Part shown: piece by piece, positions 2,213 through 53,810 of the stretch
Position numbering within the stretch: the first letter of the stretch is position 1
Layout: the number at the start of each line of letters is the position of its first letter
From: a virus
IMG/VR virus record: IMGVR_UViG_3300047160_036265
DNA length: 55,242 nucleotides
Direction: 5' to 3' (one strand)
Program-made: the position numbers and the translations under genes
Notes under the pieces: generated by a model
The model's database searches: none
What the model was told of the DNA's origin: nothing
The model's input: only the letters and a program-made list of their open reading frames with translations

Positions 2213-2230
2213 GCGTCTTGTGGTTGTAAA
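2213..2230 (-). promoter_or_regulatory. sigma-70-like promoter P1 (TTTACAACC-N-TATAAT)
   Basis: Minus strand reads TTTACA + 17 nt + TATAAT, about 30 nt upstream of the ATG at 2178. Confidence 0.65.
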
Positions 2231-2264
2231 CCACAAACAATAACGGGGCCGACGTGAAGAGAAG

Positions 2265-2337
2265 CGCCCCCAGGGGGAATCGAACCCCCGTAGTCACAGT
2301 TTTAGAGACTGCCGCTACACCACTCAGCTATGGGGGC
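2265..2337 (-). tRNA. amber suppressor tRNA, anticodon CUA, tRNA-Trp-like body
   Basis: 73-nt cloverleaf read by eye. Acceptor stem GCCCCCA/TGGGGGC, discriminator G. T-arm GGGGG-TTCGATT-CCCCC. Anticodon stem GCAGT/ACTGT with loop CUCUAAA, so anticodon CUA with U33 and A37. This is one base away from the tRNA-Trp loop CUCCAAA. CCA is not encoded. Has its own promoter. Confidence 0.7.
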
Positions 2338-2349
2338 ATCGTATACTGT

Positions 2350-2379
2350 ATTGTACGGCAGCAGGCGACTGGTTGTAAA
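2350..2379 (-). promoter_or_regulatory. promoter P2 driving the tRNA
   Basis: TTTACAACC + 18 nt + TACAAT. The -10 ends about 12 nt before the mature tRNA 5' end. Confidence 0.65.
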
Positions 2380-2383
2380 CCAA

Positions 2384-2668
2384 CTATTTCCGGCGCTTGC
2401 CGGGCCACTTGTTGTGCAGGTCGTGGGCGATCTTGCCCTCGCCCACGGTGATCGGCGGGATTAGGCCCTGAGCCGCAAGGTCTTTGGCAATCGCGTCTTC
2501 CGTCTCCCCAAAGAAGAGGAGGATTTCACCGTCCCAGGGCAGGCCAAGCTCGGAGAACTTGACATGGATCGGCTTGCCCTGCTTGAGCAGTTCGACGTTG
2601 GCGGCGGTGATGCCAAGTCCGATCAGCTTGCTGCCGCTGTTAGGGTTGGTGGCAGTGAATTTTATCAT
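2384..2668 (-). CDS. hypothetical protein (about 94 aa)
   Basis: Internal ATG (MIKFTATNPN...) with GAGGA Shine-Dalgarno. The upstream part of the track ORF is low-complexity other-frame sequence. Confidence 0.4.
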   Translation of the reverse strand: MIKFTATNPNSGSKLIGLGITAANVELLKQGKPIHVKFSELGLPWDGEILLFFGETEDAIAKDLAAQGLIPPITVGEGKIAHDLHNKWPGKRRK

Positions 2669-3236
2669 GATCTGGTCCTCGGTAGGGATACAGCTTGGAG
2701 GATGCCGGCACTTCCGTCCACCCCATGTTATCGAGGATTTCCTTGAGGGGTTTTGTTTCCTGCCAGCCCATTCGCAAAATAAAAGCCGGGTCTTCTTTGC
2801 TCCACTTGTGCCACTGGTCGATGGACATTCCCGCAACCGGCGATTCGTAGGCGGCGTAAAAGCTGCTGGCCCAGAACCAGCCGACAATATAGTTGAGCCA
2901 GCCGCCCACCGTCAGGTGCGGGATATTTTTGAAATTCCCGTGGCAGAAGGAGCTAAAGTGCTGACCCATTGGCAGCCCGCAGCCTGCCAATGGGTCGGTA
3001 AGTTGCTTGAGGGGCGATTTGCGCCAGGCCAGCCGAATGTCCAGCAGCCACATGGGGAAGAACAACCATCCCGGACCTGGGCGACGGTAGCTCAGCAGCA
3101 TATATTGGTACGGCAGAGCCAGGTACGTCCACTTGTTTCCCATGAATATGTGCCGGGCGCTAGGCGGATATTCAAGGATGATGATGCCGGCGGTTTTCTC
3201 CTTGTAATGGAAACGCATGGCTTCCCTGACGTTCAT
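2640..3236 (-). CDS. hypothetical Trp/aromatic-rich protein (198 aa)
   Basis: ATG with AAGGA Shine-Dalgarno. Protein-like composition. Confidence 0.5.
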   Translation of the reverse strand: MNVREAMRFHYKEKTAGIIILEYPPSARHIFMGNKWTYLALPYQYMLLSYRRPGPGWLFFPMWLLDIRLAWRKSPLKQLTDPLAGCGLPMGQHFSSFCHGNFKNIPHLTVGGWLNYIVGWFWASSFYAAYESPVAGMSIDQWHKWSKEDPAFILRMGWQETKPLKEILDNMGWTEVPASSKLYPYRGPDHDKIHCHQP

Positions 3237-3251
3237 GATGCCATCCTTGAA

Positions 3252-4196
3252 TCAGGCCACCTTCTCCACCTTGACCGGACGGGCGGCGGGTCGGCCAAGC
3301 ACCACGCCACCTTTCAGTTCTTTGAAAATCTCCGAGAGGGGCCGCTGATCGCGTTCCTGAGCCGTCTGGCGGCGCTGGTAGCCCTCGACACCGTGTTTGA
3401 CGGCGAAGCCACGGAACTGCTGCTCGTTGTTCAGGATCATGATATAGCGCATGATGAGGCTGTCGGTCGGCGGGAAGTTCCCCGTCAGCACCACGCACAG
3501 CCGCTCCACCAGCTTTTCCCCTTCGTAGACACAGGTGATGCCGTGGCCGGGGAATATCTGGTACATGCGCCCGCTCTTGGCTTTGACTGAGACGAAGCCG
3601 CACTTGATGAAGTTGCGGAACTTGGCCTCGCCCAGCACCCGGCGCAGCGTATCGCGTGCCCGCTGTTCACGCTCGTCGGGAGACATTTGCAGCGACTTGC
3701 GGGTGCCAATGACCATCGGGGCCTGACGAGCCTGGAGGATTTCCTTGAGGCGTTCTTCGGGGGTCTTGGCGGCGAACGGGTAAACCACGCCTGGGCAGTC
3801 GATCCAGCCCTCGCCCACCCGATAAAGGACTTTCATCGTGTGGCGGCATGTCGTAGCGTTGGTTCCTTGCCAAGCCCACTCCTGCTCATGCTCGGCAAGC
3901 GTGACACAGTTGGTGGCGCTCGTCCCCCGGTCCCAGGCGACCTGGACCCAACGGTTATCGTTGGCAGCGCGCACCACCCACCCGGCAGTGCCATCACAGC
4001 CGGTGCCCTGGATGGTATGGGGCCACACGTCGTATTCGACTTGCACAGTAGCACCCCCGGTCATGCTGTGGTTCATGGTGGCCCGCCGCACGCTGCCTGG
4101 GAACTCGACAGTATTATTGCCAGTGGCGTTGGCAACTTTGAAATAAACGGTTGGACCATTTCCGATGGTGCCAACCGCAGTATTGGTGAAGATCAT
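3252..4196 (-). CDS. hypothetical protein (about 314 aa), beta-rich N-terminal domain
   Basis: Internal ATG (MIFTNTAVG...) with GGAAGGA Shine-Dalgarno. The track start is TTG with no ribosome-binding site. Confidence 0.5.
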   Translation of the reverse strand: MIFTNTAVGTIGNGPTVYFKVANATGNNTVEFPGSVRRATMNHSMTGGATVQVEYDVWPHTIQGTGCDGTAGWVVRAANDNRWVQVAWDRGTSATNCVTLAEHEQEWAWQGTNATTCRHTMKVLYRVGEGWIDCPGVVYPFAAKTPEERLKEILQARQAPMVIGTRKSLQMSPDEREQRARDTLRRVLGEAKFRNFIKCGFVSVKAKSGRMYQIFPGHGITCVYEGEKLVERLCVVLTGNFPPTDSLIMRYIMILNNEQQFRGFAVKHGVEGYQRRQTAQERDQRPLSEIFKELKGGVVLGRPAARPVKVEKVA

Positions 4197-6538: not shown

Positions 6539-6624
6539 GACTCCTTAAAAGGGGCGTTGTAGTCTCTGGGTGGCCACAACGCCCGTTGAATGTGAAACCA
6601 GTACCAGGCCCAAAACCTCTTCAT
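6415..6624 (-). CDS. small membrane protein (69 aa)
   Basis: ATGA overlap with the HNH gene stop (translational coupling). Hydrophobic C-terminal helix. Confidence 0.45.
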   Translation of the reverse strand: MKRFWAWYWFHIQRALWPPRDYNAPFKESWKRTLLSSYSLLIVVAVYHGLIFGLVALVIAGYYLWRAFL

Positions 6625-6983
6625 GGCAGAAATTCTTCCGGGATCGTCCTGATCCCGTCCTCCACTTCACCGTGACAATTTGCACATAACAGCACGCACT
6701 TCCTGGCTTCTTGCAAGAGCTTGGGTATCGAAGTCACTGTCCTATTCATAACCCCGAAGCACTTGCCGTCCTTGTCAACATGGTGAAAATGAAGGTTCCT
6801 TTTGCACTTCCCGTAGCCGCAGAGGACGCACGCCTCGCCAAATTCGGATAGCAGGGCGTCCTTGATTTTTTTGCGATGGGCGGCGGTGTGTTCCCGATTG
6901 CACTTTATGCACCTTCGCCACTTGCCCCTCCTGGTAAACTCGGTTAGTCCATGTTTCCGACATTGATCTTTATACGACTGCAT
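6621..6983 (-). CDS. HNH endonuclease
   Basis: Cys pairs CxxC...CxxC flank HFHH and a C-terminal CANCH (HNH bba-Me motif). Confidence 0.75.
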   Translation of the reverse strand: MQSYKDQCRKHGLTEFTRRGKWRRCIKCNREHTAAHRKKIKDALLSEFGEACVLCGYGKCKRNLHFHHVDKDGKCFGVMNRTVTSIPKLLQEARKCVLLCANCHGEVEDGIRTIPEEFLP

Positions 6984-9492: not shown

Positions 9493-9557
9493 GGTTTTTA
9501 TTCCGCAAATGGAGAAAGAGCCGGGGGCCGAAAGAACCCCCGGCTCTGTGGTGCGGT

Positions 9558-11622: not shown

Positions 11623-12231
11623 TTAGAAACTTCCATCATGCAGGACTACGGCCTGGGGAGTATGAATGTCCAACTCATCCAGGTCGTACCGCTTCTCTTC
11701 TCCGCTCATGATGCCCTGCTTCTCCAGAGCGGCGTCCACCAGCGTGCGTGCCTCCTTCCTGTTATTGGCCACGACGACGGCAGACACGCCTACCGGCCAG
11801 CGACCAGTGAAATTGGTGACAGTGAAGACTTTCAAAGGTTCTCGCTTGTAGTTGGGTGGGAATAGCTCCAAGCCGTCGTGCAAGGGTTTGCCAATCGGGT
11901 GGAAGCTATACCAGTAACGCTTCTGTTTGTTAGGAACCAAAACTTCAACATGCACCATATCCAAGATGATGATGTTGAAGCGGCTGTTTTCGTCGTCAAA
12001 CCGGACTTGCAACTCGCCGGTCGTCCCACGAGTGATGATATTGTTGTTGAACCACACGTCAACCTGCAATTCGCCGGTGGCCCGAACGCCATCATCATAA
12101 ACCTGGCCGTCCGCTTGTTCGGCCCATTCGTCATCTTCTTCGGTGAGGACTTCGAGGGAAACCTTCGTTTCGATGACCCGATGCTTCCCTACGGTCAACC
12201 CGCCTTTCTCGAACGTGTAAAAATCCCTCAC
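11623..12231 (-). CDS. hypothetical protein (202 aa), GTG start
   Basis: GTG with AAGGA Shine-Dalgarno, directly downstream of promoter P3. Confidence 0.5.
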   Translation of the reverse strand: MRDFYTFEKGGLTVGKHRVIETKVSLEVLTEEDDEWAEQADGQVYDDGVRATGELQVDVWFNNNIITRGTTGELQVRFDDENSRFNIIILDMVHVEVLVPNKQKRYWYSFHPIGKPLHDGLELFPPNYKREPLKVFTVTNFTGRWPVGVSAVVVANNRKEARTLVDAALEKQGIMSGEEKRYDLDELDIHTPQAVVLHDGSF

Positions 12232-12261: not shown

Positions 12262-12290
12262 ATTCTACTGGCGGGTTTTGGGATTGTAAA
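12262..12290 (-). promoter_or_regulatory. promoter P3
   Basis: TTTACAATC + 17 nt + TAGAAT. Confidence 0.6.
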
Positions 12291-14981: not shown

Positions 14982-15509
14982 TCACCCCAAGAGTTCACCT
15001 TCGATGTTGTTCACGTCTTGAAGACGTGCCCAAAAACGCCGCACCACCGCTTTGCCTCCTGCCGGTTTCCGCAAGTCATCGCACTTTTCGATTTTGAACG
15101 TCAGCGAGTCGAATGCCTCGGCCCCCTGGCGGATGTAGTAGCGGTCGAAGGCCAGGACCGTGCCTGGCGGGAGTGAGGCGTCGATATATGGCAATGGTAT
15201 CTGCGTCAGGAAGGATTTGTAAACCTCAGTTGCCGGCTCCTGGGGTTTTTCTGACCGCCGAATGGTAAAGCCGGCGTCCTTGAAGCGGGCAAACAGCACC
15301 GACCAGTCTTCGCGCTGCTTGGTGTGCCAGATCGGCTCGGCCCCCACCCCGGTCCACGGCTTGAACTTCCCCGCTGGCACGACGATCTTCTTGCTGCCAT
15401 CCAGCAGGGCGGCGAGCAGGGTGGCGTTACGGTCCTCGAAGTAGAGGCGGAAGCCCCACTCTTCGCTCAGACGAATCAGCGCCCCCAGGGGCGGAATGCA
15501 GAGTTTCAA
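14982..15509 (-). CDS. hypothetical protein (175 aa), TTG start
   Basis: TTG with GGAGGT Shine-Dalgarno and a TTGA overlap with the upstream stop. Confidence 0.45.
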   Translation of the reverse strand: MKLCIPPLGALIRLSEEWGFRLYFEDRNATLLAALLDGSKKIVVPAGKFKPWTGVGAEPIWHTKQREDWSVLFARFKDAGFTIRRSEKPQEPATEVYKSFLTQIPLPYIDASLPPGTVLAFDRYYIRQGAEAFDSLTFKIEKCDDLRKPAGGKAVVRRFWARLQDVNNIEGELLG

Positions 15510-15973
15510 ATTCCCAAACCTCCACTCAGGCCCATTTGACGTTCAAGTTCATGGGGGCATACACCCGACGCACCCCTTCCAAGATTGCAGTTGGAACAAA
15601 GCACCTGAACCCCAACGTCGGGCCAGTTATTCTTCCTCAACCAGAGATAGAACGCATAACCAGCCTTGCATTTTAATTGCCTTCGGTGCTTCGCTCCATC
15701 TTGGTTAATATGGTCCAAAGTTAAAAACTCCAGCCGTGGCTCCCCGCAGCACCGGCAGTTTATGCCGTAGTGGTCCATTACCTCCCGTTTGATTTTCCAA
15801 TAAGCCGCCGAGTTTCTTTGCTTTTCAACCTGCTTGTTCTCTTGGTATCTTTTGCCCCTTCGGCCTATCAGACAGACCTTACAATACTGACACTTGCCAT
15901 CGTGTCGGGTCTTATCGGCGTGAAAAGCCTCCGGTTTCTTCCAGCCACATCCAGGCGTTGCGCATTTCTTCAT
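15506..15973 (-). CDS. HNH endonuclease
   Basis: CxxC...CxxC pairs and LDHINQDG...H (HNH motif). Confidence 0.7.
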   Translation of the reverse strand: MKKCATPGCGWKKPEAFHADKTRHDGKCQYCKVCLIGRRGKRYQENKQVEKQRNSAAYWKIKREVMDHYGINCRCCGEPRLEFLTLDHINQDGAKHRRQLKCKAGYAFYLWLRKNNWPDVGVQVLCSNCNLGRGASGVCPHELERQMGLSGGLGI

Positions 15974-19107: not shown

Positions 19108-19144
19108 AAATAAAACTGGCCAGGTGCAAGGGCCACCTGGCCAG
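19108..19144 (-). terminator. intrinsic terminator
   Basis: 11-bp stem CTGGCCAGGTG/CACCTGGCCAG with a 7-nt loop, followed by TTTTATTT on the minus strand. Confidence 0.7.
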
Positions 19145-19168
19145 TGTCCCAGGAGTACCCGCAGGGAC

Positions 19169-19649: not shown

Positions 19650-19686
19650 AAGAAAAAAGGCCCGCCCAGGACAGCCTGGGCGGGCC
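19650..19686 (-). terminator. intrinsic terminator
   Basis: 12-bp perfect stem GGCCCGCCCAGG/CCTGGGCGGGCC with loop ACAG, followed by TTTTTTCTT on the minus strand. Confidence 0.75.
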
Positions 19687-19695
19687 GACACGCGA

Positions 19696-20622
19696 TCACA
19701 CTTCGCTGTTGCCGATGATGTCGCCGGCAATGCCCTTCAGCCGCTCGACCTTCTCGGCGGGGGTGTCATTCAAGCCCAGCTTCGCCTTCCCGACGAAGTG
19801 GACCGGGCTGAACACCCGAAAGAACGCCCGGACGTGATCCAGGGCCTTGGCGTAGACCGGGACGCGCCCGATGACGCCCTTCTTGACCGTGACCTGCGGG
19901 GTCGTCACCAGGACCAGCTTGCGCTCTTCCGGCGTCAACTCGTTCTGGACGAACCCCATGATCTTCTTGGCGACCGCCTTCTCCTCGTCGGTCGCTTCCT
20001 TGAAGTCCTTGCCTTCCTGGTGGCCGAACAGCAACTCGTTGAAGGCCCGCAGGCTCTTCACCGGGCGCATCTCGACCTCGTTCGCCAGGAACGCCTCGGC
20101 CTGGTCCTGCGGCACGCCCATCTCCACCAGCAGCCGGACGGTCGCCGTCTGGAGGGTTTCGCCTTCAGCGGGTTCGGGCAGGTGGATGTTGTTCTTGGTG
20201 AAGCGGTCCTGCACCTGGAACAGCGCCTCCATGTCGCGCTGGCCGGGCGCACCGTCCTTGTCCAGCTTCAGGGCCGGGTTCGTGGGCTGGGCCTTGTACT
20301 TCCACAGGCTTTCCTCCCACAGTGCGAACACCACACGGTCAACCTCGTCCTCGCTGTTCTCGGCGCGCTTCTGGACGATCTCGGACAGCACCTTGGCCCC
20401 GACGAAGCGCTTGAACGCCTCGATGACGTGCGGGGGCAGGGGGACTTCGGGCCGGTCGGCCTTCTTGCCCTTCTCCTTCACCGTGGCGGAACCGTCGTCG
20501 CCCAGGGCGTCGAACAGGTCGTCACCAGCGGGGGCAGCGCCGCCACGGACAGCGCCGGGAATAGAGTGGGTGGGCTGGGAGCCAGTGGCCGGGGTGGCGG
20601 GGGTGGAACGGGAACGAGCCAT
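19696..20622 (-). CDS. hypothetical protein (308 aa), monocistronic unit
   Basis: ATG with GGAGG Shine-Dalgarno. Its own P4 promoter lies upstream and a strong terminator downstream. The N-terminus is disordered, rich in Ala/Pro/Gly. Confidence 0.6.
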   Translation of the reverse strand: MARSRSTPATPATGSQPTHSIPGAVRGGAAPAGDDLFDALGDDGSATVKEKGKKADRPEVPLPPHVIEAFKRFVGAKVLSEIVQKRAENSEDEVDRVVFALWEESLWKYKAQPTNPALKLDKDGAPGQRDMEALFQVQDRFTKNNIHLPEPAEGETLQTATVRLLVEMGVPQDQAEAFLANEVEMRPVKSLRAFNELLFGHQEGKDFKEATDEEKAVAKKIMGFVQNELTPEERKLVLVTTPQVTVKKGVIGRVPVYAKALDHVRAFFRVFSPVHFVGKAKLGLNDTPAEKVERLKGIAGDIIGNSEV

Positions 20623-20711: not shown

Positions 20712-20740
20712 ATCTTACTGCTGCGGCTACCCGTTGTAAA
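20712..20740 (-). promoter_or_regulatory. promoter P4
   Basis: TTTACAACG + 17 nt + TAAGAT. Confidence 0.6.
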
Positions 20741-22127: not shown

Positions 22128-22617
22128 GCGGTTCTCCGGCCTTCAATTTGCGGACGGTTTCTTCCAGTTTGGCGATCTGGACACTTTGCCGCATCGTCTT
22201 GGCTTCCAATTGCCGGCGGCTTACCTGCGCACACCTATCTTCTGTCGTTTCGAGGGAGATGTCAACCATATCACGGGCGGAAAGCGTCTTCCGCCAGCCA
22301 TCCAGTTTGGCGGCGTATTCCTCCTGGCCCGCCTCGCACAACTTCTTCCACTCGAAGTCAAGAAAGGCATCCACCTTGTCAATGATGTATTCCCGGCAGT
22401 CCTTGAGCTTCTTGTCGTATTCCTCGTACAGATCAACTTCCAGTTGCTCTGTCTTTTTCCGTTCGGCCAGAAGCATCTGGTATGCTTCCTCGTAGCCCTC
22501 TTCGAGCGCCTGCTCCATTTCCTTTTTGACGGCCTCCAGCTTGCCCTTGTACTCTTCCTCCAACTCGGCCCGGACCTCGGCCTTTAATTCGGCCCGGCCT
22601 ATCCAGAAGTTTTCCAT
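22111..22617 (-). CDS. coiled-coil protein (about 168 aa)
   Basis: Internal ATG (MENFWIG...) with AAAGGA Shine-Dalgarno. Confidence 0.5.
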   Translation of the reverse strand: MENFWIGRAELKAEVRAELEEEYKGKLEAVKKEMEQALEEGYEEAYQMLLAERKKTEQLEVDLYEEYDKKLKDCREYIIDKVDAFLDFEWKKLCEAGQEEYAAKLDGWRKTLSARDMVDISLETTEDRCAQVSRRQLEAKTMRQSVQIAKLEETVRKLKAGEPHDDYS

Positions 22618-22657
22618 TGCGAAATCCTTTCTTAAATTGCGGGCGTCCTGCCATATT

Positions 22658-31241: not shown

Positions 31242-31270
31242 ACTGTACCGCCGCTGACCCCGGTTGTAAA
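31242..31270 (-). promoter_or_regulatory. promoter P7
   Basis: TTTACAACC + 17 nt + TACAGT. Confidence 0.55.
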
Positions 31271-33261: not shown

Positions 33262-33290
33262 ATATTACATCGGCAACGGGCAGTTGTAAA
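33262..33290 (-). promoter_or_regulatory. promoter P8 (PARP-like gene)
   Basis: TTTACAACT + 17 nt + TAATAT. Confidence 0.6.
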
Positions 33291-35459: not shown

Positions 35460-35709
35460 AAGTCTCCCCAGCCAACGTGAGCCAGCCGGGGCTGCTCCTT
35501 TCTGAGTTTAAGAGTGCGGCGTCCTTGGCGGTTTTGACCACTTGCCCGATAGTTAAGCGAGCATCCCGTGGCTGGCTTGCGGGCCAATACCCCAGGTACT
35601 CGTCGGGAGCCAAAGAGCAAACGAACCGCAACTCGCTCGCTCCCGGTGGCAGTGCTGCTACGCTAGGCTTCTTCACCCCAGCCGCTTCTGTAGCCGCCGC
35701 TCTTGGGGC

Positions 35710-35922
35710 CTAGTTGACATTCCCCGATTCTACGTCGGGATTCTTCGGTTGTAAAGCATCATTGACGTGCGGCTCACACCAACAGCCGTGGATGCGGATG
35801 CCTCCGCAGTTACAACAATATTGGTTGAGGAAGCCCCGGATGAATTCGAGTCGGTCTTCGGGGCGGAAGTGCTTCTGCCGTTCCAGAAACTCATCGTAAA
35901 GCTGCTTGGCTGACTCCAGCAT
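35710..35922 (-). CDS. Cys-rich small protein (70 aa)
   Basis: CCNCGGIRIHGCWCEPH motif. ATG with GGAGGGG Shine-Dalgarno. Confidence 0.5.
   Translation of the reverse strand: MLESAKQLYDEFLERQKHFRPEDRLEFIRGFLNQYCCNCGGIRIHGCWCEPHVNDALQPKNPDVESGNVN
35727..35755 (-). promoter_or_regulatory. promoter P9 (inside the 3' end of the upstream gene)
   Basis: TTTACAACC + 17 nt + TAGAAT. Confidence 0.55.
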
Positions 35923-39511: not shown

Positions 39512-40142
39512 TCTGGTTCTCCAGGGCCAGAATCAGCCGGTCCACGCCAATGGCCCAGCCAATCCCGCAGTCATAGCGCCCGCCGCCCGCCACCTGCTTT
39601 TGGGCACCCAAGCTAGGCACTTCTACCTCGAAGCCGTCTTCAACATAATAGGACAAGCCACGCTTGACGCTCGCGTTGAGGACGTAATTCTCCAGCCCGA
39701 TTGTACGGAGAAACAGGTCCAGAAGTTTAGTCATTTCCTCCTTACTGGCGGTTCCGCCCAGGTTCTCCACCCCGAATTGCCAGAATTCCCGGTAACGACC
39801 GGCCTGGGGACGGTCATAACGGTAACACCGGCTGAGGTAGAAGACCTTGACGGGTTTGGGCAGGACTTTGCTCCAGTCGTTCTTAAATTCCGCCTGGACG
39901 ATGGCGGTGACTTCCGGGATGAGGCAGATTTCCCTGCCGCCCAGGTCGTCAAAGACGTACATCTGGCCCAGGATTTCAGGCCCGGCCTTGTCGGTGAAGA
40001 CTTCCGAAGAGGCCAACAGCGAGGGGAAGAACTCCTGATAGCCTTCAGCAATGGCGGTGTAGCGCAGGGTGTCGGTCGCGTCCCGAAACGCCTTGGCCTT
40101 GGCCCCGAACAGGTGGCGGGTGCCTCTAATCGAGTTTGACAT
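39492..40142 (-). CDS. HisRS-like class II aminoacyl-tRNA synthetase catalytic-core protein (216 aa; no anticodon-binding domain)
   Basis: GTRHLFG...MYVFDDLGGREICLIPEVTA (motif 1 region), CYRYDRPQAGRYREFWQFG (motif 2), GGGRYD (motif 3). Confidence 0.7.
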   Translation of the reverse strand: MSNSIRGTRHLFGAKAKAFRDATDTLRYTAIAEGYQEFFPSLLASSEVFTDKAGPEILGQMYVFDDLGGREICLIPEVTAIVQAEFKNDWSKVLPKPVKVFYLSRCYRYDRPQAGRYREFWQFGVENLGGTASKEEMTKLLDLFLRTIGLENYVLNASVKRGLSYYVEDGFEVEVPSLGAQKQVAGGGRYDCGIGWAIGVDRLILALENQNGGQSF

Positions 40143-41091
40143 CTCCGCTCATCAACCCTTCTCGAATGCGTTCCAGCCCCCGCTCCCGCAGTTGCCGGAC
40201 TCGTTCCTTGGTCAAGCCCAAGTCCTTGCTAATCTCCTTCAAGGTACGCTTTGTGCCGCCATTCTTCAAGCCAAACCACTGTTCGATGACGTATCGCTTG
40301 CGGTCGTCTTCATCGCCCAAGGTCTTCATCAGGCGGGCCACGTTCTTCTTGACAAGCTCCTTCCCCTCCTCATAGTCCCGCAGGTCTTCGTCGCTGGTGT
40401 CCAGGCGGGTGTCATAAATCCCGTCATCAAAACCAGTCACAAACCGCTCATTAAAGGTTCGCTCACCGGCCAGATCACGGGTGAAGTTGTTAAGCAGAAC
40501 CCAGGTGGCGTAGGTGGAGAATTTGAAACCACGGGTCCAATCGAAGCAGTCCACGGCCTTAACGATGTTCATATAAGCATCGGCAAGCAAGTCGTGCATG
40601 AGGCTGTGGGAGCGGTAAAAGTCCGTCCGCTTCCGCAACACCTGAGCGGCGAGGCGGGTGTTGGAACACACGAGTTGGTGCTTCACAACCTCGGCTTGTT
40701 TCAGACATAACTCAACCCGCTCAATAGATTTCAGCGCCCGCTCGTGTTGCTCCGGGGTCGGGGCCTTGGAGCGCCGCAAGGTCCGGGTCAGACGACGGGC
40801 TTTGTACTTGAGGAAGTTATATTTGCGAAACAAATGCCGCTCCTGGTCTTTATCCAGCAGCGGCTCCTGGTATAATGGCATCAGTTCGCTAGGAATATTC
40901 TGGTGCTTGAGCTTGGCGACTTCCTGGCGCTTCTCGTTGAATTCATCCATCCGGGGCATCTCAGCCAGGATTTCCGCCTGCATAGAGCGGAGATCGAAGT
41001 CCGGCGACTTGAATATCTTGAACTTCGGGCTGCTCACATAACTCACCAATTCTTTCGCGCGCTGCGCAATGTCATCCTTTACTGCCAACAT
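40126..41091 (-). CDS. sigma-70 family sigma factor (321 aa)
   Basis: Region 2 DLLADAYMNIVKAVDCFDWTRGFKFSTYATWVL. Region 4 TLKEISKDLGLTKERVRQLRERGLERIR. AAAGGAGG Shine-Dalgarno. Own P10 promoter. Confidence 0.85.
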   Translation of the reverse strand: MLAVKDDIAQRAKELVSYVSSPKFKIFKSPDFDLRSMQAEILAEMPRMDEFNEKRQEVAKLKHQNIPSELMPLYQEPLLDKDQERHLFRKYNFLKYKARRLTRTLRRSKAPTPEQHERALKSIERVELCLKQAEVVKHQLVCSNTRLAAQVLRKRTDFYRSHSLMHDLLADAYMNIVKAVDCFDWTRGFKFSTYATWVLLNNFTRDLAGERTFNERFVTGFDDGIYDTRLDTSDEDLRDYEEGKELVKKNVARLMKTLGDEDDRKRYVIEQWFGLKNGGTKRTLKEISKDLGLTKERVRQLRERGLERIREGLMSGDVKLD

Positions 41092-41122: not shown

Positions 41123-41152
41123 ATTATATGCTAAATCGAGATGGTTGTAAAG
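41123..41152 (-). promoter_or_regulatory. promoter P10 (sigma factor gene)
   Basis: TTTACAACC + 17 nt + TATAAT. Confidence 0.65.
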
Positions 41153-41168: not shown

Positions 41169-41576
41169 TTACGGAACGGGCACCAAGAAAGAGTTGAGCG
41201 CCCGGACGATATTCCGCACCTTATATCCCTTGGGGTGGTCCACGACCACCGTTATTTCCTGATCGGCCACGGCCCAGGGCTTGCCGGCGGCGTTGCTTTC
41301 GATGATGACGTAGACCATAGAGTTGTGGGTATAGCGGCGGCTATAACCCAGGCGGTCCCACAGTTCCTTGGCCTGCGGGGATTGGAAAATAAAAAACTCG
41401 TTGCGATCCAGCCTGGAGCGACCCCGCAAGCTAGGTGCGCCGTTAGGCGGGTCGTCATACTCCACCACCATTTCCGGCCAGTGGGCTTTGCACAGACCGA
41501 GAATGCCCTTCTCGATCTGTGCATATTTCTTGCCTTCCGGCCAGGTGTAGAGCAGATCGTAACCGCCGATTTCCAT
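41169..41576 (-). CDS. hypothetical protein (135 aa)
   Basis: ATG overlaps the upstream stop. Confidence 0.5.
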   Translation of the reverse strand: MEIGGYDLLYTWPEGKKYAQIEKGILGLCKAHWPEMVVEYDDPPNGAPSLRGRSRLDRNEFFIFQSPQAKELWDRLGYSRRYTHNSMVYVIIESNAAGKPWAVADQEITVVVDHPKGYKVRNIVRALNSFLVPVP

Positions 41577-43138
41577 TATTTACCGCAGGTTGGGTCGTAT
41601 TTGTGCATCATCTGATTGATGGTAGCCAGGTCCAGCGGTTTGACCAGGAAATCATGGAATCCGGCGTCCTGGGCACGCTGGCGGTCCTTCTCCTGGCCGA
41701 AGCCGGTGACGGCGATGACTTTTGTTTCCGGCACGAGGCGGATCAACTCCTGGCAGACCTTGTAGCCGTCCATGTAGGGCAGGCCAATGTCCAGCAGCAC
41801 GATATTGGGTACGAACTCGGTCGCGCTCTTCAGGGCCGCTGGGCCATCGTTGGCCACCCACACGTCGTAGCCCTGCATCCGCAGCATGGCCACCATGCTG
41901 TCCGCCGCATCCACATTGTCATCCACGACGAGGATGCGGCAGTCCTTGGTAGGGGCGATGGGGAATGACGCAGGTTCCCCGGTATCCTCCTTGCGTGGTG
42001 AACCGCCCTCGATGGATTCCGGTACGGGAACCTCGTCGCCCACATCGCTTACGGGGAATTCGATGCTGAAGGTGGACCCCAGGTTGAGGCCCGGCGAATG
42101 AGCGGCAACGGTTCCTCCCTGAAGCTCCGTCAACTGCTTGACGAGGCTCAGACCTACTCCCAGACCGCCGTGGGTCTGGTATTCGCCCCGGCGCTCGGCC
42201 TGCACGAACAGGTCGAAAATACGGGGCAGCATGGTTTCGGAGATGCCGATGCCGGTATCCACGACTTCGATTTTTACCTTCTTCTGGTCATCCGAGAGGA
42301 GGCAGTTGAGACGGATTTTTCCACCCGGTTCCGTATATTTGGCAGCGTTGTTGAGCAAATTGGAAATCGCCTGCTCGACACGGGGCGCATCGCCCACCAT
42401 CCAGATCGCCTCGGACGGGATGGAAATGTATAAGGAGTGATAGCGGGTGTCGATGGCGGGCCGTGACTGGTCGATGGCGTTGGAAATGGCCCGCTGAAGC
42501 TGGACTGGCTCCTGCTTGATATTGATTTTGCCCCGGCTGATGCGGGCCATGTCCAGCAAGTCATCCAGCAACCGGCCCATATGCTTGACCTGGCGCTCGA
42601 TGATATTACGGTGGTCGCGCAGTACGGCGTCCTGGTTGCCGTCGCGCATCCGGGACACCTGGAGCGACGACAGGATTGGGGCCAGCGGGTTGCGCAGTTC
42701 GTGGGACAGAACGGCCAGGAACTCATCCTTGCGGCGGTCGGCCTCGGCCAGTTCGTCAATCCACTTCTTGCGTTCGCTGATGTCCCGAATAACGGCGACA
42801 ATCCCCTCCTGGTCGCCGTGGTTGAACTTGGACAGGGACATCTCGACGGCGAATTCCTCACCGTTACGACGCCGGCCCACCGTCTCGACCAGTGAGCCGA
42901 TCATGGGGCCTTCCCCGGTGGCCTTATAGTGGACGATACCCCGTGCCATCTCCTCCTGCATACGCAGCGGCACGAAGTCCGCACAGGCAACAACCTTGTT
43001 GACCATCTCCTCCTGCCGATAGCCGAACATCCGTTCCGCCGCCGGGTTGAAATGGGTGATGAGCAAGTCCTGGTTGGCGATGATGATGGCATCCTGGGCG
43101 CTGTCGAGGATGGCTTGCAACATGGCTATATCCTCCAT
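41576..43138 (-). CDS. hybrid sensor histidine kinase (PAS-HisKA-HATPase-REC; about 520 aa)
   Basis: H-box SHELRNPL, N/G boxes LLNNAAKY, DTGIGI, GGLGVGL. C-terminal receiver ILVVDDN...LLDIGLPYMDG...KPLD. TGATG coupling. Confidence 0.8.
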   Translation of the reverse strand: MEDIAMLQAILDSAQDAIIIANQDLLITHFNPAAERMFGYRQEEMVNKVVACADFVPLRMQEEMARGIVHYKATGEGPMIGSLVETVGRRRNGEEFAVEMSLSKFNHGDQEGIVAVIRDISERKKWIDELAEADRRKDEFLAVLSHELRNPLAPILSSLQVSRMRDGNQDAVLRDHRNIIERQVKHMGRLLDDLLDMARISRGKINIKQEPVQLQRAISNAIDQSRPAIDTRYHSLYISIPSEAIWMVGDAPRVEQAISNLLNNAAKYTEPGGKIRLNCLLSDDQKKVKIEVVDTGIGISETMLPRIFDLFVQAERRGEYQTHGGLGVGLSLVKQLTELQGGTVAAHSPGLNLGSTFSIEFPVSDVGDEVPVPESIEGGSPRKEDTGEPASFPIAPTKDCRILVVDDNVDAADSMVAMLRMQGYDVWVANDGPAALKSATEFVPNIVLLDIGLPYMDGYKVCQELIRLVPETKVIAVTGFGQEKDRQRAQDAGFHDFLVKPLDLATINQMMHKYDPTCGK

Positions 43139-48037: not shown

Positions 48038-49333
48038 TTATGCGGCCTTGACCGGCAGCAGTTTGACTTCGCCCCGCACAACTTCGGGGGTCACGACCCA
48101 CTTGCCGCCCTTGTGGTCAGGCAGTTCGTACATGATGTCGAGCATGATCTCCTCAACCACGCCCCGCAAAGCACGCGCACCCGTATCCCGTTCGATGGCG
48201 AGCTTGGCGATTTCCTTGACAGCACCGGGCGTAAACTCCAGGTCGGCCCCGTCCATGCGGAAAATCTTCATGTATTGCTTGAGCAGGGCGTCCTTGGGGT
48301 CGGTCAGAATCTTGCAGAGGAATTCCTCGTTCAGTTCGCAAAGCGTGGTGATGACCGGGAGCCGCCCGACGAATTCGGGGATCATGCCGAACTCGATCAG
48401 GTCGTCGCTTGTCACCTTGCCCATGATGGCATCGTTCTGTTCCTGCTCTGTGCCCTCCTCGTGTTTGACGCCGAAGCCGATGCTCCGCTTGCCGGTGCGG
48501 CGGGCGATGATGTCCTTGAGGCCGGTGAACGTGCCGCCGCAGATGAACAGAATGTTGGTGGTGTCCACCTGGATATATTGTTGCTCCGGGTGCTTGCGCC
48601 CGCCCTGTGGGGGGACGTTCGCCAACGTGCCTTCCAACATCTTCAGAAGGGCCTGCTGGACCCCTTCGCCCGACACGTCACGGGTGATGGAAATGTTCTG
48701 GTTGGTTTTGCCGATCTTGTCAACCTCATCGAGATAAATGATGCCGCACTGAGCGGCCTCGATGTTAAAATCTGCCGACCGAAGCAGCCGCAGCAGCAGG
48801 TTCTCAACGTCTTCGCCAACGTAGCCCGCCTCTGTCAACGTGGTAGCGTCCCCGATGGCGAATGGCACGTCCAGCTTCTTGGCCAGGGTCCGTGCCAGGA
48901 GGGTCTTGCCAGAACCAGTAGGGCCGATCAACAAGATGTTGCTCTTGTCGATGTTGACCTCGGCCAAGGGGTCCGCCTCACCATCCTTTCTGGTAAGCGT
49001 GTGGTCCTTCAACCGCTTGTAGTGGTTGGCGACGGCCACGGCCAGAATCTTCTTGGCCCGGTCCTGGCCGATAACGTACTGGTCCATGTGCGCGACCAGT
49101 TCCTTCGGAGAAGGGATGCGCTGCGGAAGGTACTGGTCGGACAATTCGCGCTTGAGATTTTGCTTCCTGACAATCTCCTCGCAGATGCCGACGCAGCCGG
49201 CGCAGATGAACACCTTATCCTCGTCGGGTGTTCGTCCGTTGGCCAGCGCCCCTGGACCTTCGATCAGCGGTCCCACTACCTTGTGGGACTGCTTGCAAAA
49301 GTCACAATGCTGATCCCTCTTCTTCCTCGTCAT
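48038..49333 (-). CDS. clpX: ClpX ATP-dependent protease ATPase subunit
   Basis: N-terminal C4 zinc finger (CDFC...CAGC), Walker A GPTGSGKT, and ClpX-typical blocks. ATG (MTRKKRDQH...) with AAGAGG Shine-Dalgarno. Confidence 0.85.
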
Positions 49334-49374: not shown

Positions 49375-49403
49375 AGTATACTCGCCAGCGAAGACGCTGT
49401 AAA
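49375..49403 (-). promoter_or_regulatory. promoter P14 (clpX)
   Basis: TTTACAGC + 17 nt + TATACT. Confidence 0.5.
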
Positions 49404-50481: not shown

Positions 50482-50564
50482 CCGTGATTCCTTGGGGCAG
50501 AGACACCTACTATTATAGGGGAGTTAGTCCAAGACTCGATTTTAGCATGTTCTGATGTGGGAGA

Positions 50565-50858
50565 CTAGCTCGGCTTGTCGTCGGGCGTGATCTTAAATTC
50601 CAAGCCGGCCTTGAAACCTTCCAGGTACTCGACAGTGGTTTCCAACTCCCTGGCAACGTCGAAAAGCCAGTCGCCGGTGCAGTTTTCCGCACCCAGGAGC
50701 GGGGTTTCCAGCAAGCAGCACTGGTTTTTGGAGGGGGAGAGGCGATAGCACGAGTTGAGCGGGTCGAATGTCATCAAGGGGCGCTGGTGGCTCATGCTTA
50801 CTTTGCAGCCCAGCTTAAAGGCTACGGCGTAAGAGTCGATGAGCTTTTGGCGATTCAT
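50565..50858 (-). CDS. hypothetical protein (97 aa)
   Basis: ATGA-coupled. Confidence 0.45.
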   Translation of the reverse strand: MNRQKLIDSYAVAFKLGCKVSMSHQRPLMTFDPLNSCYRLSPSKNQCCLLETPLLGAENCTGDWLFDVARELETTVEYLEGFKAGLEFKITPDDKPS

Positions 50859-51805
50859 GCTGCACTTCCTTCTACCAACCTGAGCCAGCGAGCGAACCCA
50901 GCCAGGGTCACTTCGCCGTAGTCAAAAGGGTCCGGCATCCCAAGTTCCTTTGCCTTCAACCTCCAGTGGCCTCGTTTCCACGGGTACTTCGCTATTTCCT
51001 CTGGTGACATTTTGGACGTATCGGGGTAGTCGAGGGTTCCACCGCCGCCAAAGCCATATTTTTGCTTGAGGGCTTCCTTTTCCGCACCGATGGCGGTGTG
51101 GTAGCGGGCCAATGCCCGGATACGCTCCATGTCCTGGTCAACGGTCAATTTTTTTTTTGAGGCGAGTGCTTCGCCCAGCGTTTCCTTGAACTTCCAGACC
51201 GGCCCAAGCTCCTCGTTGCCGTTGGCAATCCGGGCGTCCTTGCCAACTTGCAACTCGTCAATGGCACCATTGACCATCTGCCAGCCGCCTTCGGGCGGGA
51301 TGCCCCAGAACATGACGACTTCTACGCCGCTGATATATCCGTGGCGACCGATGAGATTCTGGCGCAGGGCAAGCTCCCGAACCTTCCAGTGGTCGATGTC
51401 CTGCTTTTGGCCAATTTCCCGGTAGCCGCCCGTATCGGGGTCGCGTTCGCTGCTGTATATGGTGCGGGTATAGCTGATGTCAGGCAGCACCTTCTCCAGA
51501 TCGGGACCGAAGAAGCCCTTGAGTACGTCGGGGTCGCCAATATGTTGTTCGTGGCCTGTGCCGGCTGAAAAGGCATGGAGCCTGCGGCCCTGGTCGTCGG
51601 GATAGCGTGTGTAAAAGAAGGCGGTTTGGCCACGACCGTAGCGGGCGTTGACGGAGCTAGGCCGCAATACGTCCGGTCCACGGGTCAGGGCTTGCGGGGG
51701 TATGAGTTTCTGGCCGTCGCTGAAGTCCATGTGGTATTTATCCTGTGGGGTGTTTTTATACCAAGAAAGCCCTGGCGGAAACCAGGGCTTTCTTGGTGAC
51801 TTCAT
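50855..51805 (-). CDS. hypothetical protein (about 316 aa)
   Basis: Internal ATG (MKSPRKPW...) overlapping the upstream TGA (TGATG). The track's N-terminal 90 aa are Gly/Pro-rich other-frame sequence. Confidence 0.45.
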   Translation of the reverse strand: MKSPRKPWFPPGLSWYKNTPQDKYHMDFSDGQKLIPPQALTRGPDVLRPSSVNARYGRGQTAFFYTRYPDDQGRRLHAFSAGTGHEQHIGDPDVLKGFFGPDLEKVLPDISYTRTIYSSERDPDTGGYREIGQKQDIDHWKVRELALRQNLIGRHGYISGVEVVMFWGIPPEGGWQMVNGAIDELQVGKDARIANGNEELGPVWKFKETLGEALASKKKLTVDQDMERIRALARYHTAIGAEKEALKQKYGFGGGGTLDYPDTSKMSPEEIAKYPWKRGHWRLKAKELGMPDPFDYGEVTLAGFARWLRLVEGSAA

Positions 51806-52191
51806 CACTTGGTCAGGCCCCGTAGGAATTCCGCCAGGGTGATGAGGTTGTCGTAACCGCCAACCTCCTCGGCAAACTCCTTCACCCTCTTGGCCTTGGC
51901 CGTGAAGCCCTGAAGGTCGGTCGGTGGCGGGGCCGCAGGCGGCGGGGGCGAAACGGCGGAAGGGACCACCGGAGAGGCCGTGGCCTGGACCGGCTGGGGA
52001 CGTTGCTTTCGGCGGGCCTCGGCCTGCTCTTCCCGGAACCTCTTGCGCTCGGCGTAGACCAGGGACGAGTGGCAAGTCTGCTTGTAGCGCTTCTGCATCT
52101 CGTCAATGATGTCCTGGGCGTCCGTCTCGGTGCCCAGGTCCAGTAAGATCGCCCGCACCATCTGGGTCCGGCTTTGCGTCTGCTGAGCCAT
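51805..52191 (-). CDS. hypothetical protein (128 aa)
   Basis: ATG with AGGAGA Shine-Dalgarno. Confidence 0.5.
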   Translation of the reverse strand: MAQQTQSRTQMVRAILLDLGTETDAQDIIDEMQKRYKQTCHSSLVYAERKRFREEQAEARRKQRPQPVQATASPVVPSAVSPPPPAAPPPTDLQGFTAKAKRVKEFAEEVGGYDNLITLAEFLRGLTK

Positions 52192-52230: not shown

Positions 52231-52259
52231 AAGGGTACTTTGAATCCTCGGAATTGTAA
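52231..52259 (-). promoter_or_regulatory. promoter P11 (weak -10)
   Basis: TTTACAATT + 17 nt + TACCCT. Confidence 0.4.
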
Positions 52260-52266
52260 AGCGGCT

Positions 52267-52296
52267 ATAAAAAACGCCCGGCAGCCATGCCGGGCG
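52267..52296 (-). terminator. intrinsic terminator
   Basis: 8-bp stem CGCCCGGC/GCCGGGCG followed by TTTTTTAT on the minus strand. Downstream of the AT-hook gene. Confidence 0.6.
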
Positions 52297-52327
52297 TATT
52301 GATATGCCGCCGCCGTGCAGAACGTGG

Positions 52328-52846
52328 TTAGGCGGCGTCCTTCTTGAAGTACCGCATGGAGTCGTTGTCCCGCACCAGAACCTTCTTCTTCATCATGCGG
52401 CCCACGGCCTGCTGGACCATGTTGTGGAAGTTCTTGCTCGTGGAGACGTAGCCGGCCTTGAGCGCCAACTCCACCATCTCGGCCAGGCTCAATCCATGCT
52501 TGGCCTTCTCGACCAGTTCAAGGAGCAGTTCTTCCAGGGGCGGCTGCTTGTCCACCCCGGACTCGGCCTTGGACGGACGGCCCCTGCCCCGCTTGTCGGC
52601 ATCGCTCGCCGCCGCCGGCTTGCTGCGAGGAGCGCGAGGGGCAGAGGGCTTGGTCTTGGCCTCGGTCGCCTTGCCCACGGTAACGGTCGGTGCCGGCTTG
52701 GTCGGGGCACCACTGACGGGGGTGCTGTTGCCGCCGGGGAGGATGACACCAAGCTCTGCGATCTTGCTGTCGATCTCGTCCAGTTCCTTTTGCTTCGCCA
52801 CCTTTTGCTGAATTAGCTCGATGGCCTGTTCCAAATCAGTAGCCAC
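52328..52846 (-). CDS. AT-hook DNA-binding protein with N-terminal coiled coil (about 172 aa), GTG start
   Basis: KRGRGRPSK AT-hook. GTG (V8 of the track ORF) with AGGAGA Shine-Dalgarno. Confidence 0.45.
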   Translation of the reverse strand: MATDLEQAIELIQQKVAKQKELDEIDSKIAELGVILPGGNSTPVSGAPTKPAPTVTVGKATEAKTKPSAPRAPRSKPAAASDADKRGRGRPSKAESGVDKQPPLEELLLELVEKAKHGLSLAEMVELALKAGYVSTSKNFHNMVQQAVGRMMKKKVLVRDNDSMRYFKKDAA

Positions 52847-52935
52847 TGGCAGGTTCTCCTGTCCCACGTTTTATTTTCCAATCACCTGCTCCGGTGGGAC
52901 TTGCCGGCAGCCGGCGAACAACCGCCCTCTATCTC

Positions 52936-52964
52936 ACTATACGCCAATACTTGTGGGTGTAAAG
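52936..52964 (-). promoter_or_regulatory. promoter P12
   Basis: TTTACACCC + 16 nt + TATAGT. Confidence 0.55.
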
Positions 52965-53045
52965 CACAGACGGAGAGCTTTTTCAAAAATAGTGATCCGA
53001 TACTCGGTTATTTCCAGCACAGGGATTATCAGAAAGGAAACAACT

Positions 53046-53252
53046 ATGCTCGTGCTATCGAGAAAGAAGGACGAAACGATCATCCTCAAAGGCCCCGACA
53101 TGAAGGAAATAAAAATCACCGTGGTGCGCATCGACAACCGCAACAAGGTGAGGCTGGGGATCGAGGCCGATAAGGAAGTCACGGTCCTCCGCTCCGAACT
53201 CAACGGCATCGGTCACGGCAATGGCAACGGCAATCATGCCGGCGAAGCCTAA
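53046..53252 (+). CDS. csrA: CsrA/RsmA family RNA-binding regulator (68 aa)
   Basis: MLVLSRKKDETIILKGPDMKEIKITVVRIDNRNKVRLGIEADKEVTVLRSEL aligns to the CsrA consensus (MLILTRK.GE...VRIGI.AP..V.V.R.E). AAAGGA Shine-Dalgarno. The only well-supported plus-strand gene. Confidence 0.7.
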   Translation: MLVLSRKKDETIILKGPDMKEIKITVVRIDNRNKVRLGIEADKEVTVLRSELNGIGHGNGNGNHAGEA

Positions 53253-53737
53253 AGCGACAAAGCCTTGGTGATGACTTCTCGAACCCGCCGGTACTCCGGG
53301 CCATTGATGTCCCAGAAATAACGGGCAAAATAACACACCGCTTCAGCGGAGTATTCGGTGCCCTTCGTCCAGCCTGCCGCACGGACTTCCTCGGCCCAGC
53401 GAACAATCTGGTCGTCAGTGGCCTGGCTGCCTTCCCACGGGTGGCCTTCGGGCTTGCAGGGTGGCTTGCCCGCCGGGACATGGACAACCGCACGGCCATC
53501 ACCCCCACTCCGGGCCTGGCGGGTTTCCACGGCTGGCGGGGTTTCGACAGGCGGGGTATCGACGGCTGGGGACTGTTCCGCATCTGAAGGTGGGGACGAG
53601 CCGGGCAGGATACCCCCGGCGGTGGCCGCAGTGTCGGCCAACTTGGTAGGATAAAAATTGTGACCGCACTCACACCGCTGGGTCCGTAACCCGACCGACT
53701 TCTTGCACTTCGGGCATTCCTTATGACCACGGGGCAT
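53249..53737 (-). CDS. zinc-ribbon protein (162 aa)
   Basis: CPKC...CECGH. GGAGGAAGG Shine-Dalgarno. Downstream of P13. Its 3' end overlaps the csrA stop convergently. Confidence 0.55.
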   Translation of the reverse strand: MPRGHKECPKCKKSVGLRTQRCECGHNFYPTKLADTAATAGGILPGSSPPSDAEQSPAVDTPPVETPPAVETRQARSGGDGRAVVHVPAGKPPCKPEGHPWEGSQATDDQIVRWAEEVRAAGWTKGTEYSAEAVCYFARYFWDINGPEYRRVREVITKALSL

Positions 53738-53781
53738 GGCTTTCTGCCTTCCTCCAGGGTGCCACGGGCGACTACGAGGCT

Positions 53782-53810
53782 ATTGTAGAACGGGACTTCA
53801 TCGTTGTAAA
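53782..53810 (-). promoter_or_regulatory. promoter P13
   Basis: TTTACAACG + 17 nt + TACAAT. Confidence 0.65.

Follow-up and report, generated by a model that had tools for sequence, protein, structure and literature searches.

The early promoters of bacteriophage T4 are transcribed by the unmodified host sigma-70 holoenzyme at once upon infection, even without phage protein synthesis, and carry additional conserved positions and UP elements (Hinton 2010, PMC2988021). Their -35 element is GTTTAC (-36 to -31), in which position -33, a T, is believed to make contact with Alt-ADP-ribosylated alpha; related phages vary between G and T at this position, and early promoters are also found ahead of tRNA genes and novel open reading frames (ORFs) (Nolan et al. 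2006, PMC1524935). The stretch of viral DNA analyzed here, IMG/VR record IMGVR_UViG_3300047160_036265 (55,242 nucleotides, referred to as the window), contains 13 promoters of closely similar design, one of which stands before a gene for a phage sigma-70-family protein. The family would be best filed as T4-type early promoters in an uncultivated huge-phage lineage.

Sigma-family proteins encoded by the phage, as in the window, are found in phiEco32 and 7-11 (gp36), SPO1 (gp28, with gp33/34) and T4 (gp55). The promoters of phiEco32 gp36, SPO1 gp28, and T4 gp55 are clearly different from the sigma-70 consensus. The phiEco32 sigma gene itself reportedly has a host-type promoter; for SPO1 and 7-11, a host-type promoter of the sigma gene is likewise described, which is also the situation in the window. 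The T4 gp55 promoter, TATAAATA, is clearly unlike sigma-70 sites (PMC1524935), whereas the window promoters are sigma-70-like.

The codon-position GC profile of the window (~58% GC) places all real genes on the minus strand and identifies the long plus-strand ORFs as antisense shadows. An initial annotation, made from the sequence alone, had listed 13 intergenic, minus-oriented copies of TTTACAAC-N15-TAnAAT. All 13 sites are present, all on the minus (coding) strand and all between genes, each immediately past the stop codon of the preceding gene. They are given below and named throughout by the minus-strand position at which TTTACA begins, which is the second coordinate of each line.

53782-53810, minus strand: promoter TTTACA-N17-TACAAT, upstream of the 162-amino acid (aa) gene 53249-53737, directly 3' of the phosphoribosyl pyrophosphate (PRPP) synthetase gene
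52936-52963, minus strand: promoter variant TTTACAcc-N16-TATAGT, upstream of gene 52328-52867
52232-52260, minus strand: promoter variant TTTACAat-N17-TACCCT with a weak -10, upstream of gene 51805-52191
49375-49403, minus strand: promoter variant TTTACAgc-N17-TATACT, upstream of clpX (48038-49333)
41123-41151, minus strand: promoter TTTACAAC, hexamer spacer N17, TATAAT, upstream of the phage sigma gene
35727-35755, minus strand: promoter TTTACAAC, hexamer spacer N17, TAGAAT, followed by a non-coding leader of ~270 nt
33262-33290, minus strand: promoter TTTACAAC, hexamer spacer N17, TAATAT, upstream of the WGR-PARP gene 31600-33225
31242-31270, minus strand: promoter TTTACAAC, hexamer spacer N17, TACAGT, upstream of the 242-aa gene 30484-31212 and the AAA/proteasomal-ATPase-like gene 28751-30424
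26057-26086, minus strand: promoter TTTACAAC, hexamer spacer N18, TACAAT, upstream of the T4 Rnl1-type RNA ligase gene 24965-26050
20712-20740, minus strand: promoter TTTACAAC, hexamer spacer N17, TAAGAT, upstream of gene 19696-20622
12262-12290, minus strand: promoter variant TTTACAat-N17-TAGAAT, upstream of gene 11623-12231
2350-2379, minus strand: promoter TTTACAAC, hexamer spacer N18, TACAAT, ~12 nt upstream of the tRNA
2202-2230, minus strand: promoter TTTACAAC, hexamer spacer N17, TATAAT, upstream of the DUF179/AlgH (YqgE-like) gene 1657-2178

Ten copies of the exact 8-mer TTTACAAC are present, where shuffles predict 0.72; nine copies are intergenic on the minus strand, and the tenth, at 26252, is intergenic on the plus strand and has no -10. 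Searches for TTTACAAC-N15-TAnAAT with at most one mismatch return 8 matches against 0.00 expected. The relaxed pattern TTTACA-N16-19-TAnnnT returns 14 matches: 14/14 lie on the coding strand, and 13/14, which are the listed sites, are intergenic. With ~11% of the window non-coding, the probability of at least 13 intergenic matches among 14 is ~4e-12. The single intragenic match, at 15223-15194, has a poor -10 (TACCAT). Scanning the window for intergenic TTGACA-type promoters returned none.

The claim of an unusually invariant -35 is borne out, TTTACA being present at 13/13 sites. The longer consensus is too strict as originally worded: nine of the 13 sites have the exact 8-mer and seven have TAnAAT, and the remainder deviate, with TTTACAAT at two sites and TTTACACC and TTTACAGC at one each, and a -10 that fits TAnnnT in every case and is weakest at 52260 (TACCCT). 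Hexamer spacers measure 17 nt at 10 sites, 18 nt at two, and 16 nt at one. The genes said to be driven by the family are largely as described, with promoters heading the tRNA, the DUF179/YqgE-like gene, the PARP gene, the AAA-ATPase unit, clpX, and the sigma gene; the gene termed RnlA-like, by contrast, encodes a T4 Rnl1-type RNA ligase. Downstream of promoter 35755 there is no immediately adjoining gene but a conserved non-coding sequence of ~270 nt.

The sites have the features of the sigma-70 class: TTTACA matches TTGACA in five of six positions, spacers are 16-18 nt, and T-12, A-11, and T-7 are present. Position -33 is T, never G, at all 13. Conservation extends past the hexamer, with G at -37 in 10/13 sites, C at -36 in 8/13, and A and C directly after the hexamer in 11/13 each, so that the -35 of the window's clade can be written (G)(C)TTTACAAC. 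G occupies -13 at 10/13 sites. An A/T-rich, UP-like patch lies at approximately -46 to -41, reaching 92% A/T at -42 and averaging 60% over -48 to -40 against a background of 42%. The extended -10 (T-15 G-14, or TGn) is absent at the 13 window sites.

Most of these features recur in T4, whose early promoters share with the window a TTTAC(A/T) -35 with T-33, an A/T tract near -42, a 17-bp spacer, and TAnAAT, as well as the deployment of many near-identical coding-strand copies before accessory ORFs and tRNA genes. On the coding strand of T4 bases 1-50000, there are 13 TTTACN-N16-18-TAnnAT sites versus one with TTGACN; 8/13 lie in intergenic gaps right before early genes, one reads TTTACAAC, and several have tGGTAtAAT. 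The extended -10 tGG of T4 is shared by two distant relatives of the window, L008 and L009, and the alternation of G and T at -33 among T4 relatives recurs here between clades (TTGCGT/TTGCTT in L005-L007). T4 differs in having G at -36, where the window has mostly C, with G at -37; unlike in T4, the TGn element is missing from the window's clade, where an AC is conserved directly past the hexamer. The likeness is one of promoter design and accessory genes, the window having none of the T4 core genes (gp23, gp55, gp33). Also unlike T4, with its enterobacterial host, the window has 58% GC and probably a Planctomycetota host, and reading by host sigma is an assumption here.

Homologues of the window sigma are encoded on contigs from metagenomes, up to 586 kb long, and on viral contigs from IMG/VR, 60-533 kb long (34-59% GC for the relatives that carry them). 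The IMG/VR relatives were found with an alignment query; a scan of IMG/VR with the window sigma as a single protein gave no match. The relatives keep the gene order FolD-PRPP synthetase-ClpX-metallophosphatase-GGACT-sigma-HD-PARP-AAA-Rnl1-NUDIX-ADP-ribosylglycohydrolase (ARH), and the presence of sigma homologues on large contigs in this synteny indicates that the window comes from a widespread huge-phage lineage. In L001 and L002, whose sigma is 73% identical, all five window promoters of the shared span (those of clpX, sigma, the leader, PARP, and the 242-aa gene) have positional orthologues. Between the window and L001, the hexamers of these five sites are identical at 59/60 positions and the spacers at 47/85 (Fisher p = 5e-10), which shows that the hexamers are under purifying selection when compared with the spacers. 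Orthologues of the clpX promoter 49403 are present in L001, L003, L008, and L009, and those of the PARP promoter 33290 in L001, L005, L006, L008, and L009.

Conservation of the family reaches further than close relatives. L008 and L009, with sigma identities of 42% and 40% and GC contents of 45% and 53%, carry TTTACA-N17-tGGTAaAAT ahead of their clpX, PARP, AAA ATPase, and RNA ligase genes. The sigma gene of every relative examined is likewise preceded by a same-class promoter, with a -35 of TTTACA in some clades, TTTATC or TTTACC in L008/L009, and the form TTGCGT or TTGCTT-N18-TATAAT in the L005-L007 clade. Over 432 kb of IMG/VR relatives, TTTACA is the commonest coding-strand hexamer 17 nt upstream of TAnnAT. 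The -10 of promoter 26086 ends 6 nt ahead of the ATG of the Rnl1-type ligase, which lacks a Shine-Dalgarno sequence, and four genes of L008 (6160, 11780) and L009 (7323, 20189) similarly have the -10 close to the ATG and no Shine-Dalgarno; across these five cases, the distance to the independently called ATG is 5-6 nt, which fits a start ~7 nt after the -10 and a leaderless mRNA. Leaderless messages are thereby implied, the ligase mRNA from promoter 26086 probably being one of them, in an arrangement that for this gene is kept across relatives. Judged from sequence, the promoters are predicted to be functional, members of a real, strongly selected, and deeply conserved family.

The phage sigma is the other component of the proposed circuit.

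40126-41091, minus strand: phage sigma-70-family gene, 321 aa, with a region 1.2-like stretch, region 2, and region 4

Alignment to solved SigA/RpoD structures covers regions 2 (~aa 123-210) and 4 (~aa 254-312) only. They are joined by a linker of 43 aa, versus ~98 aa in SigA, which indicates that the sigma-3 domain is absent from the phage protein. Scores with the RpoD models are 70-87 bits, where the cut-offs lie at 354-572, and the RpoD, SigA, and RpoS NCBIfam models all remain far below cut-off; only the superfamily model TIGR02937 passes, and the protein does not have the characteristics of a primary (group 1) sigma. The same short linker, with PLLxxxQEQHLFRKMN, is found in two 559-aa proteins of Planctomycetota metagenome-assembled genomes (labeled Planctomycetia and Gemmatales) and an Acidobacteriales fragment; both full-length 559-aa homologues additionally bear an N-terminal extension rich in helix-turn-helix elements. 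Among GTDB genomes, the best full-length matches are mostly Planctomycetota, including Gemmataceae, Pirellulales, and Planctomycetales. Every phage or cellular member of the clade (window 40126-41091, P0099, P0116, and L011-L026) has the same region 4.2 helix, TKERVRQ, and the phage sigma retains most -35-contacting residues (E, R, and Q of this helix) together with the region 2.3 aromatics. Its region 2.4 reads FSTYATWVLLNNFTR, which we take to be W434V and Q437N in E. coli numbering. Sequence comparison thus places the phage sigma in a distinct, domain-3-less clade of the sigma-70 family whose cellular members are mainly Planctomycetota. A Planctomycetota bacterium is probably the phage host, since the nearest cellular sigma homologues belong mostly to this phylum. 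The RpoD-like sigmas of the 'group 2' jumbo phages are alike in being close to the cellular sigma-70 family and probably acquired from cells (Iyer et al. 2021, PMC7824862), and, as in those phages, RNA polymerase genes are absent from the window; the window sigma differs from theirs in lacking domain 3 and falling below the RpoD/SigA cut-offs.

The initiating reader of the 13 promoters is favored to be the host primary-sigma holoenzyme, possibly in phage-modified form, with a probability of roughly 0.6. The phage sigma is unnecessary to explain them. The initial annotation had taken the invariance of the -35 to suggest a phage sigma and an autoregulatory loop, but the design is that of T4 early promoters, which host sigma-70 reads without any phage protein, and the family is not evidence for such a circuit. 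Recognition by the phage sigma is additionally at odds with the -35 of the sigma promoter itself, which differs between clades although the TKERVRQ helix never changes; variation at the -35 is thus not coupled to the phage sigma. The presence of a same-class promoter before the sigma gene in every relative means that first expression of sigma must not need the phage sigma. What would mark a phage-sigma-dependent class, namely a distinct consensus that is absent before the sigma gene and co-varies with sigma residues, was not seen. The T-15 G-14 element is read by sigma region 3.0. Its retention in L008/L009, together with the lack of region 3.0 in the phage sigma, favors host sigma as the reader. 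A phage-modified host holoenzyme, which had been offered as the second option, would fit the T4 Alt precedent; the window encodes a PARP-like ADP-ribosyltransferase and an ADP-ribosylglycohydrolase.

In the proposed mechanism, the host primary-sigma holoenzyme would bind the sites on infection, without prior phage protein, and transcription would begin ~7 nt past the -10. The tRNA and the genes for ClpX, histidine kinases, ADP-ribosylation enzymes, RNA ligases, and the phage sigma would thereby be switched on, in units delimited by intrinsic terminators. More speculatively, T-33 and the invariant flanks may favor a phage-modified polymerase, as with T4 Alt, and the phage sigma would most likely act later on another promoter class outside the window, or share these promoters.

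Several observations weigh against host reading. The host itself has been assigned from the nearest cellular homologues of the phage sigma, and the good promoter-like sites detected in ~150 kb of Planctomycetota DNA read TTGACN-N17/18-TAnnnT, not TTTACN, including some just upstream of the cellular sigma homologues. Strict T-33 is unexpected under selection for the strongest host-sigma site, so a phage-specific component may act. The -35-contacting and region 2.3 residues retained in the phage sigma mean that it could read -35/-10 promoters of this kind. A second promoter class for it was not found in the window, which has no structural genes, the place where such a class would be expected, and the TGn element is absent from the window's own clade. 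The literature yielded no usable Planctomycetes promoter consensus and nothing usable on Planctomycetota jumbo phages.

Reading by the phage sigma with autoregulation is rather unlikely. The version in which host and phage sigmas share the sites by hand-over, the host holoenzyme initiating and the phage sigma then replacing host sigma on the core, is unlikely; its consequences would be positive feedback on the sigma gene and phage transcription independent of host sigma. The region 2 and 4 residues of the phage sigma are compatible with -10/-35 reading, every relative has the motif before its sigma gene, and T-33 is invariant while promoters of the host phylum use G. One huge phage, moreover, is reported to target the host sigma-70 gene with a CRISPR spacer while encoding a sigma-70 of its own (PMC7162821). 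Against a hand-over, however, the sigma recognition helix does not covary with the -35 variant across clades, T4 has the same promoter type without any such sigma, and distant relatives keep TGn although the phage sigma lacks region 3.0. It would likewise be against the odds for TTTACA(AC)-N17-TAnAAT to be the dedicated regulon of the domain-3-less, Planctomycetota-type sigma, with host polymerase giving the first spark only and the phage sigma then displacing host sigma and driving its own gene and all of the accessory region in a self-sustaining loop; T-33 would in that case act as a discriminator, barring host sigma from these sites and the phage sigma from TTGACA promoters of the host. The strictest form, which was the main idea of the initial annotation, holds that only phage-sigma holoenzyme reads TTTACAAC-N15-TAnAAT and that the initial sigma supply is delivered by the virion or arises through read-through. 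The extended, invariant -35, which differs at -33 from host-phylum promoters, speaks for it, but it is very improbable: the sigma gene is preceded by this promoter class alone, which creates a bootstrapping problem, and is separated from upstream units by the hairpins at 52297-52274 and 51797-51760. The 5/6 match of the -35 and the canonical -10 are also unlike the phage-sigma promoters named above, and the T4 precedent points to host reading.

A further proposal adds to promoter function rather than replacing it. In the hyperplastic accessory regions of T4-like phages, composite terminator/early-promoter motifs termed PeSLs mediate modular gene shuffling (PMC4122927), and the window sites could double as cassettes of this kind, their uniformity owing in part to recombination or concerted evolution. 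The setting is similar, with early-type promoters punctuating an accessory region whose gene content varies among relatives, and promoter 52260 directly follows the terminator 52297-52274 to form one clear composite (52297-52232), an arrangement also present in L003 at 32-155. Most window sites, unlike PeSLs, have no stem-loop partner, however; one lies adjacent at only one, at most two, of the 13 (the second being a weak composite at 2230, after the tRNA). The copies, in addition, resemble each other only in the hexamers and 2-3 bases beside them, too short a stretch to support homologous recombination. This role is quite unlikely.

The T4 early-promoter design of TTTACA, T-33, and an upstream A/T patch recurs far beyond enterobacterial T4-like phages, in phages that probably infect Planctomycetota. 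This recurrence sharpens an old T4 question: why T rather than G stands at -33, and whether ADP-ribosylated polymerase is involved. The combination of T-33, a domain-3-less sigma, and an ADP-ribosylation toolkit offers a second system in which to ask it. The sigma 40126-41091 and promoter 41151 constitute a testable pair. Were the dedicated regulon to hold family-wide, over contigs of 60-590 kb and 34-59% GC, huge phages would contain a portable orthogonal sigma/promoter pair. The promoters, with the elements below, also provide a ready transcription map for an uncultivated huge-phage lineage, comprising 13 units, terminators, one tRNA, and one non-coding leader.

Intrinsic terminators had been placed at 19108, 19650, 28680, and 52267, and all four correspond to strong minus-strand hairpins with U-tracts, by which several units are closed. 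They are listed with two further hairpins.

52274-52297, minus strand: intrinsic terminator, 10-bp GC stem, then U6
28690-28723, minus strand: intrinsic terminator, long GC stem, then a U-rich tract
19659-19686, minus strand: intrinsic terminator, 12-bp stem (11 GC pairs), then U6
19115-19145, minus strand: intrinsic terminator, 12-bp stem, then UUUUAUUU
9517-9547, minus strand: additional terminator-like hairpin, after a 679-aa gene
51760-51797, minus strand: perfect 17-bp hairpin with no U-tract, between genes 51805-52191 and 50855-51730

The last of these may serve as a terminator, either bidirectional or factor-dependent, or may stabilize RNA. Two non-coding RNA features accompany them.

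2264-2337, minus strand: tRNA with anticodon CUA (amber suppressor type), under its own promoter 2379, labeled Pyl by ARAGORN
35460-35722, minus strand: conserved non-coding transcript or leader, downstream of promoter 35755

The CUA tRNA is the only tRNA of the window. Amber recoding, which it might suggest, was rejected for the window: 85 genes end in TGA (51), TAA (22), or TAG (12), and the seemingly gene-free gaps hold ordinary ORFs. Use of the tRNA in late genes elsewhere in the genome is possible. The leader spans ~270 nt without an ORF. Together with its promoter and the start of the next gene, it is 88% identical to L001 15029-15308, compared with 73% for the sigmas of the two phages, and a homologue is found only in this closest relative. 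Indels between the two measure 8, 4, 1, 1, 11, and 1 nt, i.e. not multiples of three, and at least one hairpin shows a compensatory change. Its fold energy is indistinguishable from that of shuffles (z = -1.07), and Rfam searches at gathering and E-value thresholds returned only noise for both the leader and the 299-nt spacer 26051-26349. The leader is a candidate for a novel structured leader or small RNA beside an RNA ligase gene.

That spacer, which is gene-free and lies between the GatB/YqeY-DUF2934 and Rnl1 genes, carries a canonical-looking TTGATA-N17-(TGc)GATAAT at 26342-26314 (minus strand) as well as the lone plus-strand TTTACAAC (26252). Upstream of the PARP gene, the motif GCCGAT(G/A)TA(A/T) is kept in all relatives (window 33262-33275; L001 17395, L005 12665, L006 12637, L008 ~13800, L009 ~15385). 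In the window's clade the motif and the -10 overlap, in L008/L009 it precedes the ATG by ~45 nt, and in L005/L006 it sits in a palindrome; it may be an operator or an element of the 5' untranslated region. In L005 alone, a distant relative, gtgATTTTCCGAGAC-N3-5-AAAA has three intergenic copies (14605, 15297, and 17067); the motif is missing from the window and the other loci and may have a regulatory or promoter role specific to that locus. The L005 motif ATTTTCCGAGAC was considered as a second promoter class and set aside, being absent from the window and the other relatives and thus locus-specific. The T4 late promoter TATAAATA has one plus-strand match in the window, which is not meaningful. 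Other intergenic regions of the window gave only isolated -10-like or sigma-54-like matches: a single sigma-54-like TGGCAGGACGCCCGCA at 22618-22657 (minus strand), upstream of gene 22111-22617, and two -10-like elements without a -35 (TGCTAAAAT and TATAAT) at 50482-50564 (minus strand), upstream of the M50 peptidase gene. These are probably chance occurrences or weak promoters.

Pfam annotation describes the window as a co-directional set of accessory and host-takeover genes, with no structural genes among its proteins. The products include a FolD C-terminal domain, PRPP synthetase, M50 peptidase, ClpX, a metallophosphatase, a GGACT-family protein, the sigma-70-family protein, a HisRS-like protein, PurE, an HD-domain protein, a GatB/YqeY-DUF2934 protein, a DUF179/AlgH protein, and an AAA ATPase with a weak proteasomal-ATPase OB match. 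Two RNA ligases are present, one PF09414-type (Rnl2-type) and the other T4 Rnl1-type; with the NUDIX and HNH proteins, they give the accessory complement a T4 flavor. A search of GenBank phages with 20 kb of the window found no near-identity DNA match, and PHROGs added practically no information on ten unannotated window proteins. The Pfam-assigned genes for ADP-ribosylation and signaling, and two endonuclease ORFs, are as follows.

31600-33225, minus strand: WGR-PARP gene
21111-22127, minus strand: ADP-ribosylglycohydrolase gene
24135-24704, minus strand: NUDIX hydrolase gene
41576-43123, minus strand: PAS histidine kinase, kept in L001 and L003
22658-24073, minus strand: PAS histidine kinase
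6621-6983, minus strand: HNH-type endonuclease ORF with CxxC...HH...CxxC and atypical codon usage
15506-15973, minus strand: HNH-type endonuclease ORF with CxxC...HH...CxxC and atypical codon usage

The ADP-ribosylation toolkit (WGR-PARP, ADP-ribosylglycohydrolase, and NUDIX) is syntenic in relatives and recalls Alt, ModA, and ModB of T4, which modify RNA polymerase and affect early promoter use. The two PAS histidine kinases, one of them a PAS-HisKA-HATPase-REC hybrid, are unusual phage cargo, and the two HNH-type ORFs are likely homing endonucleases.

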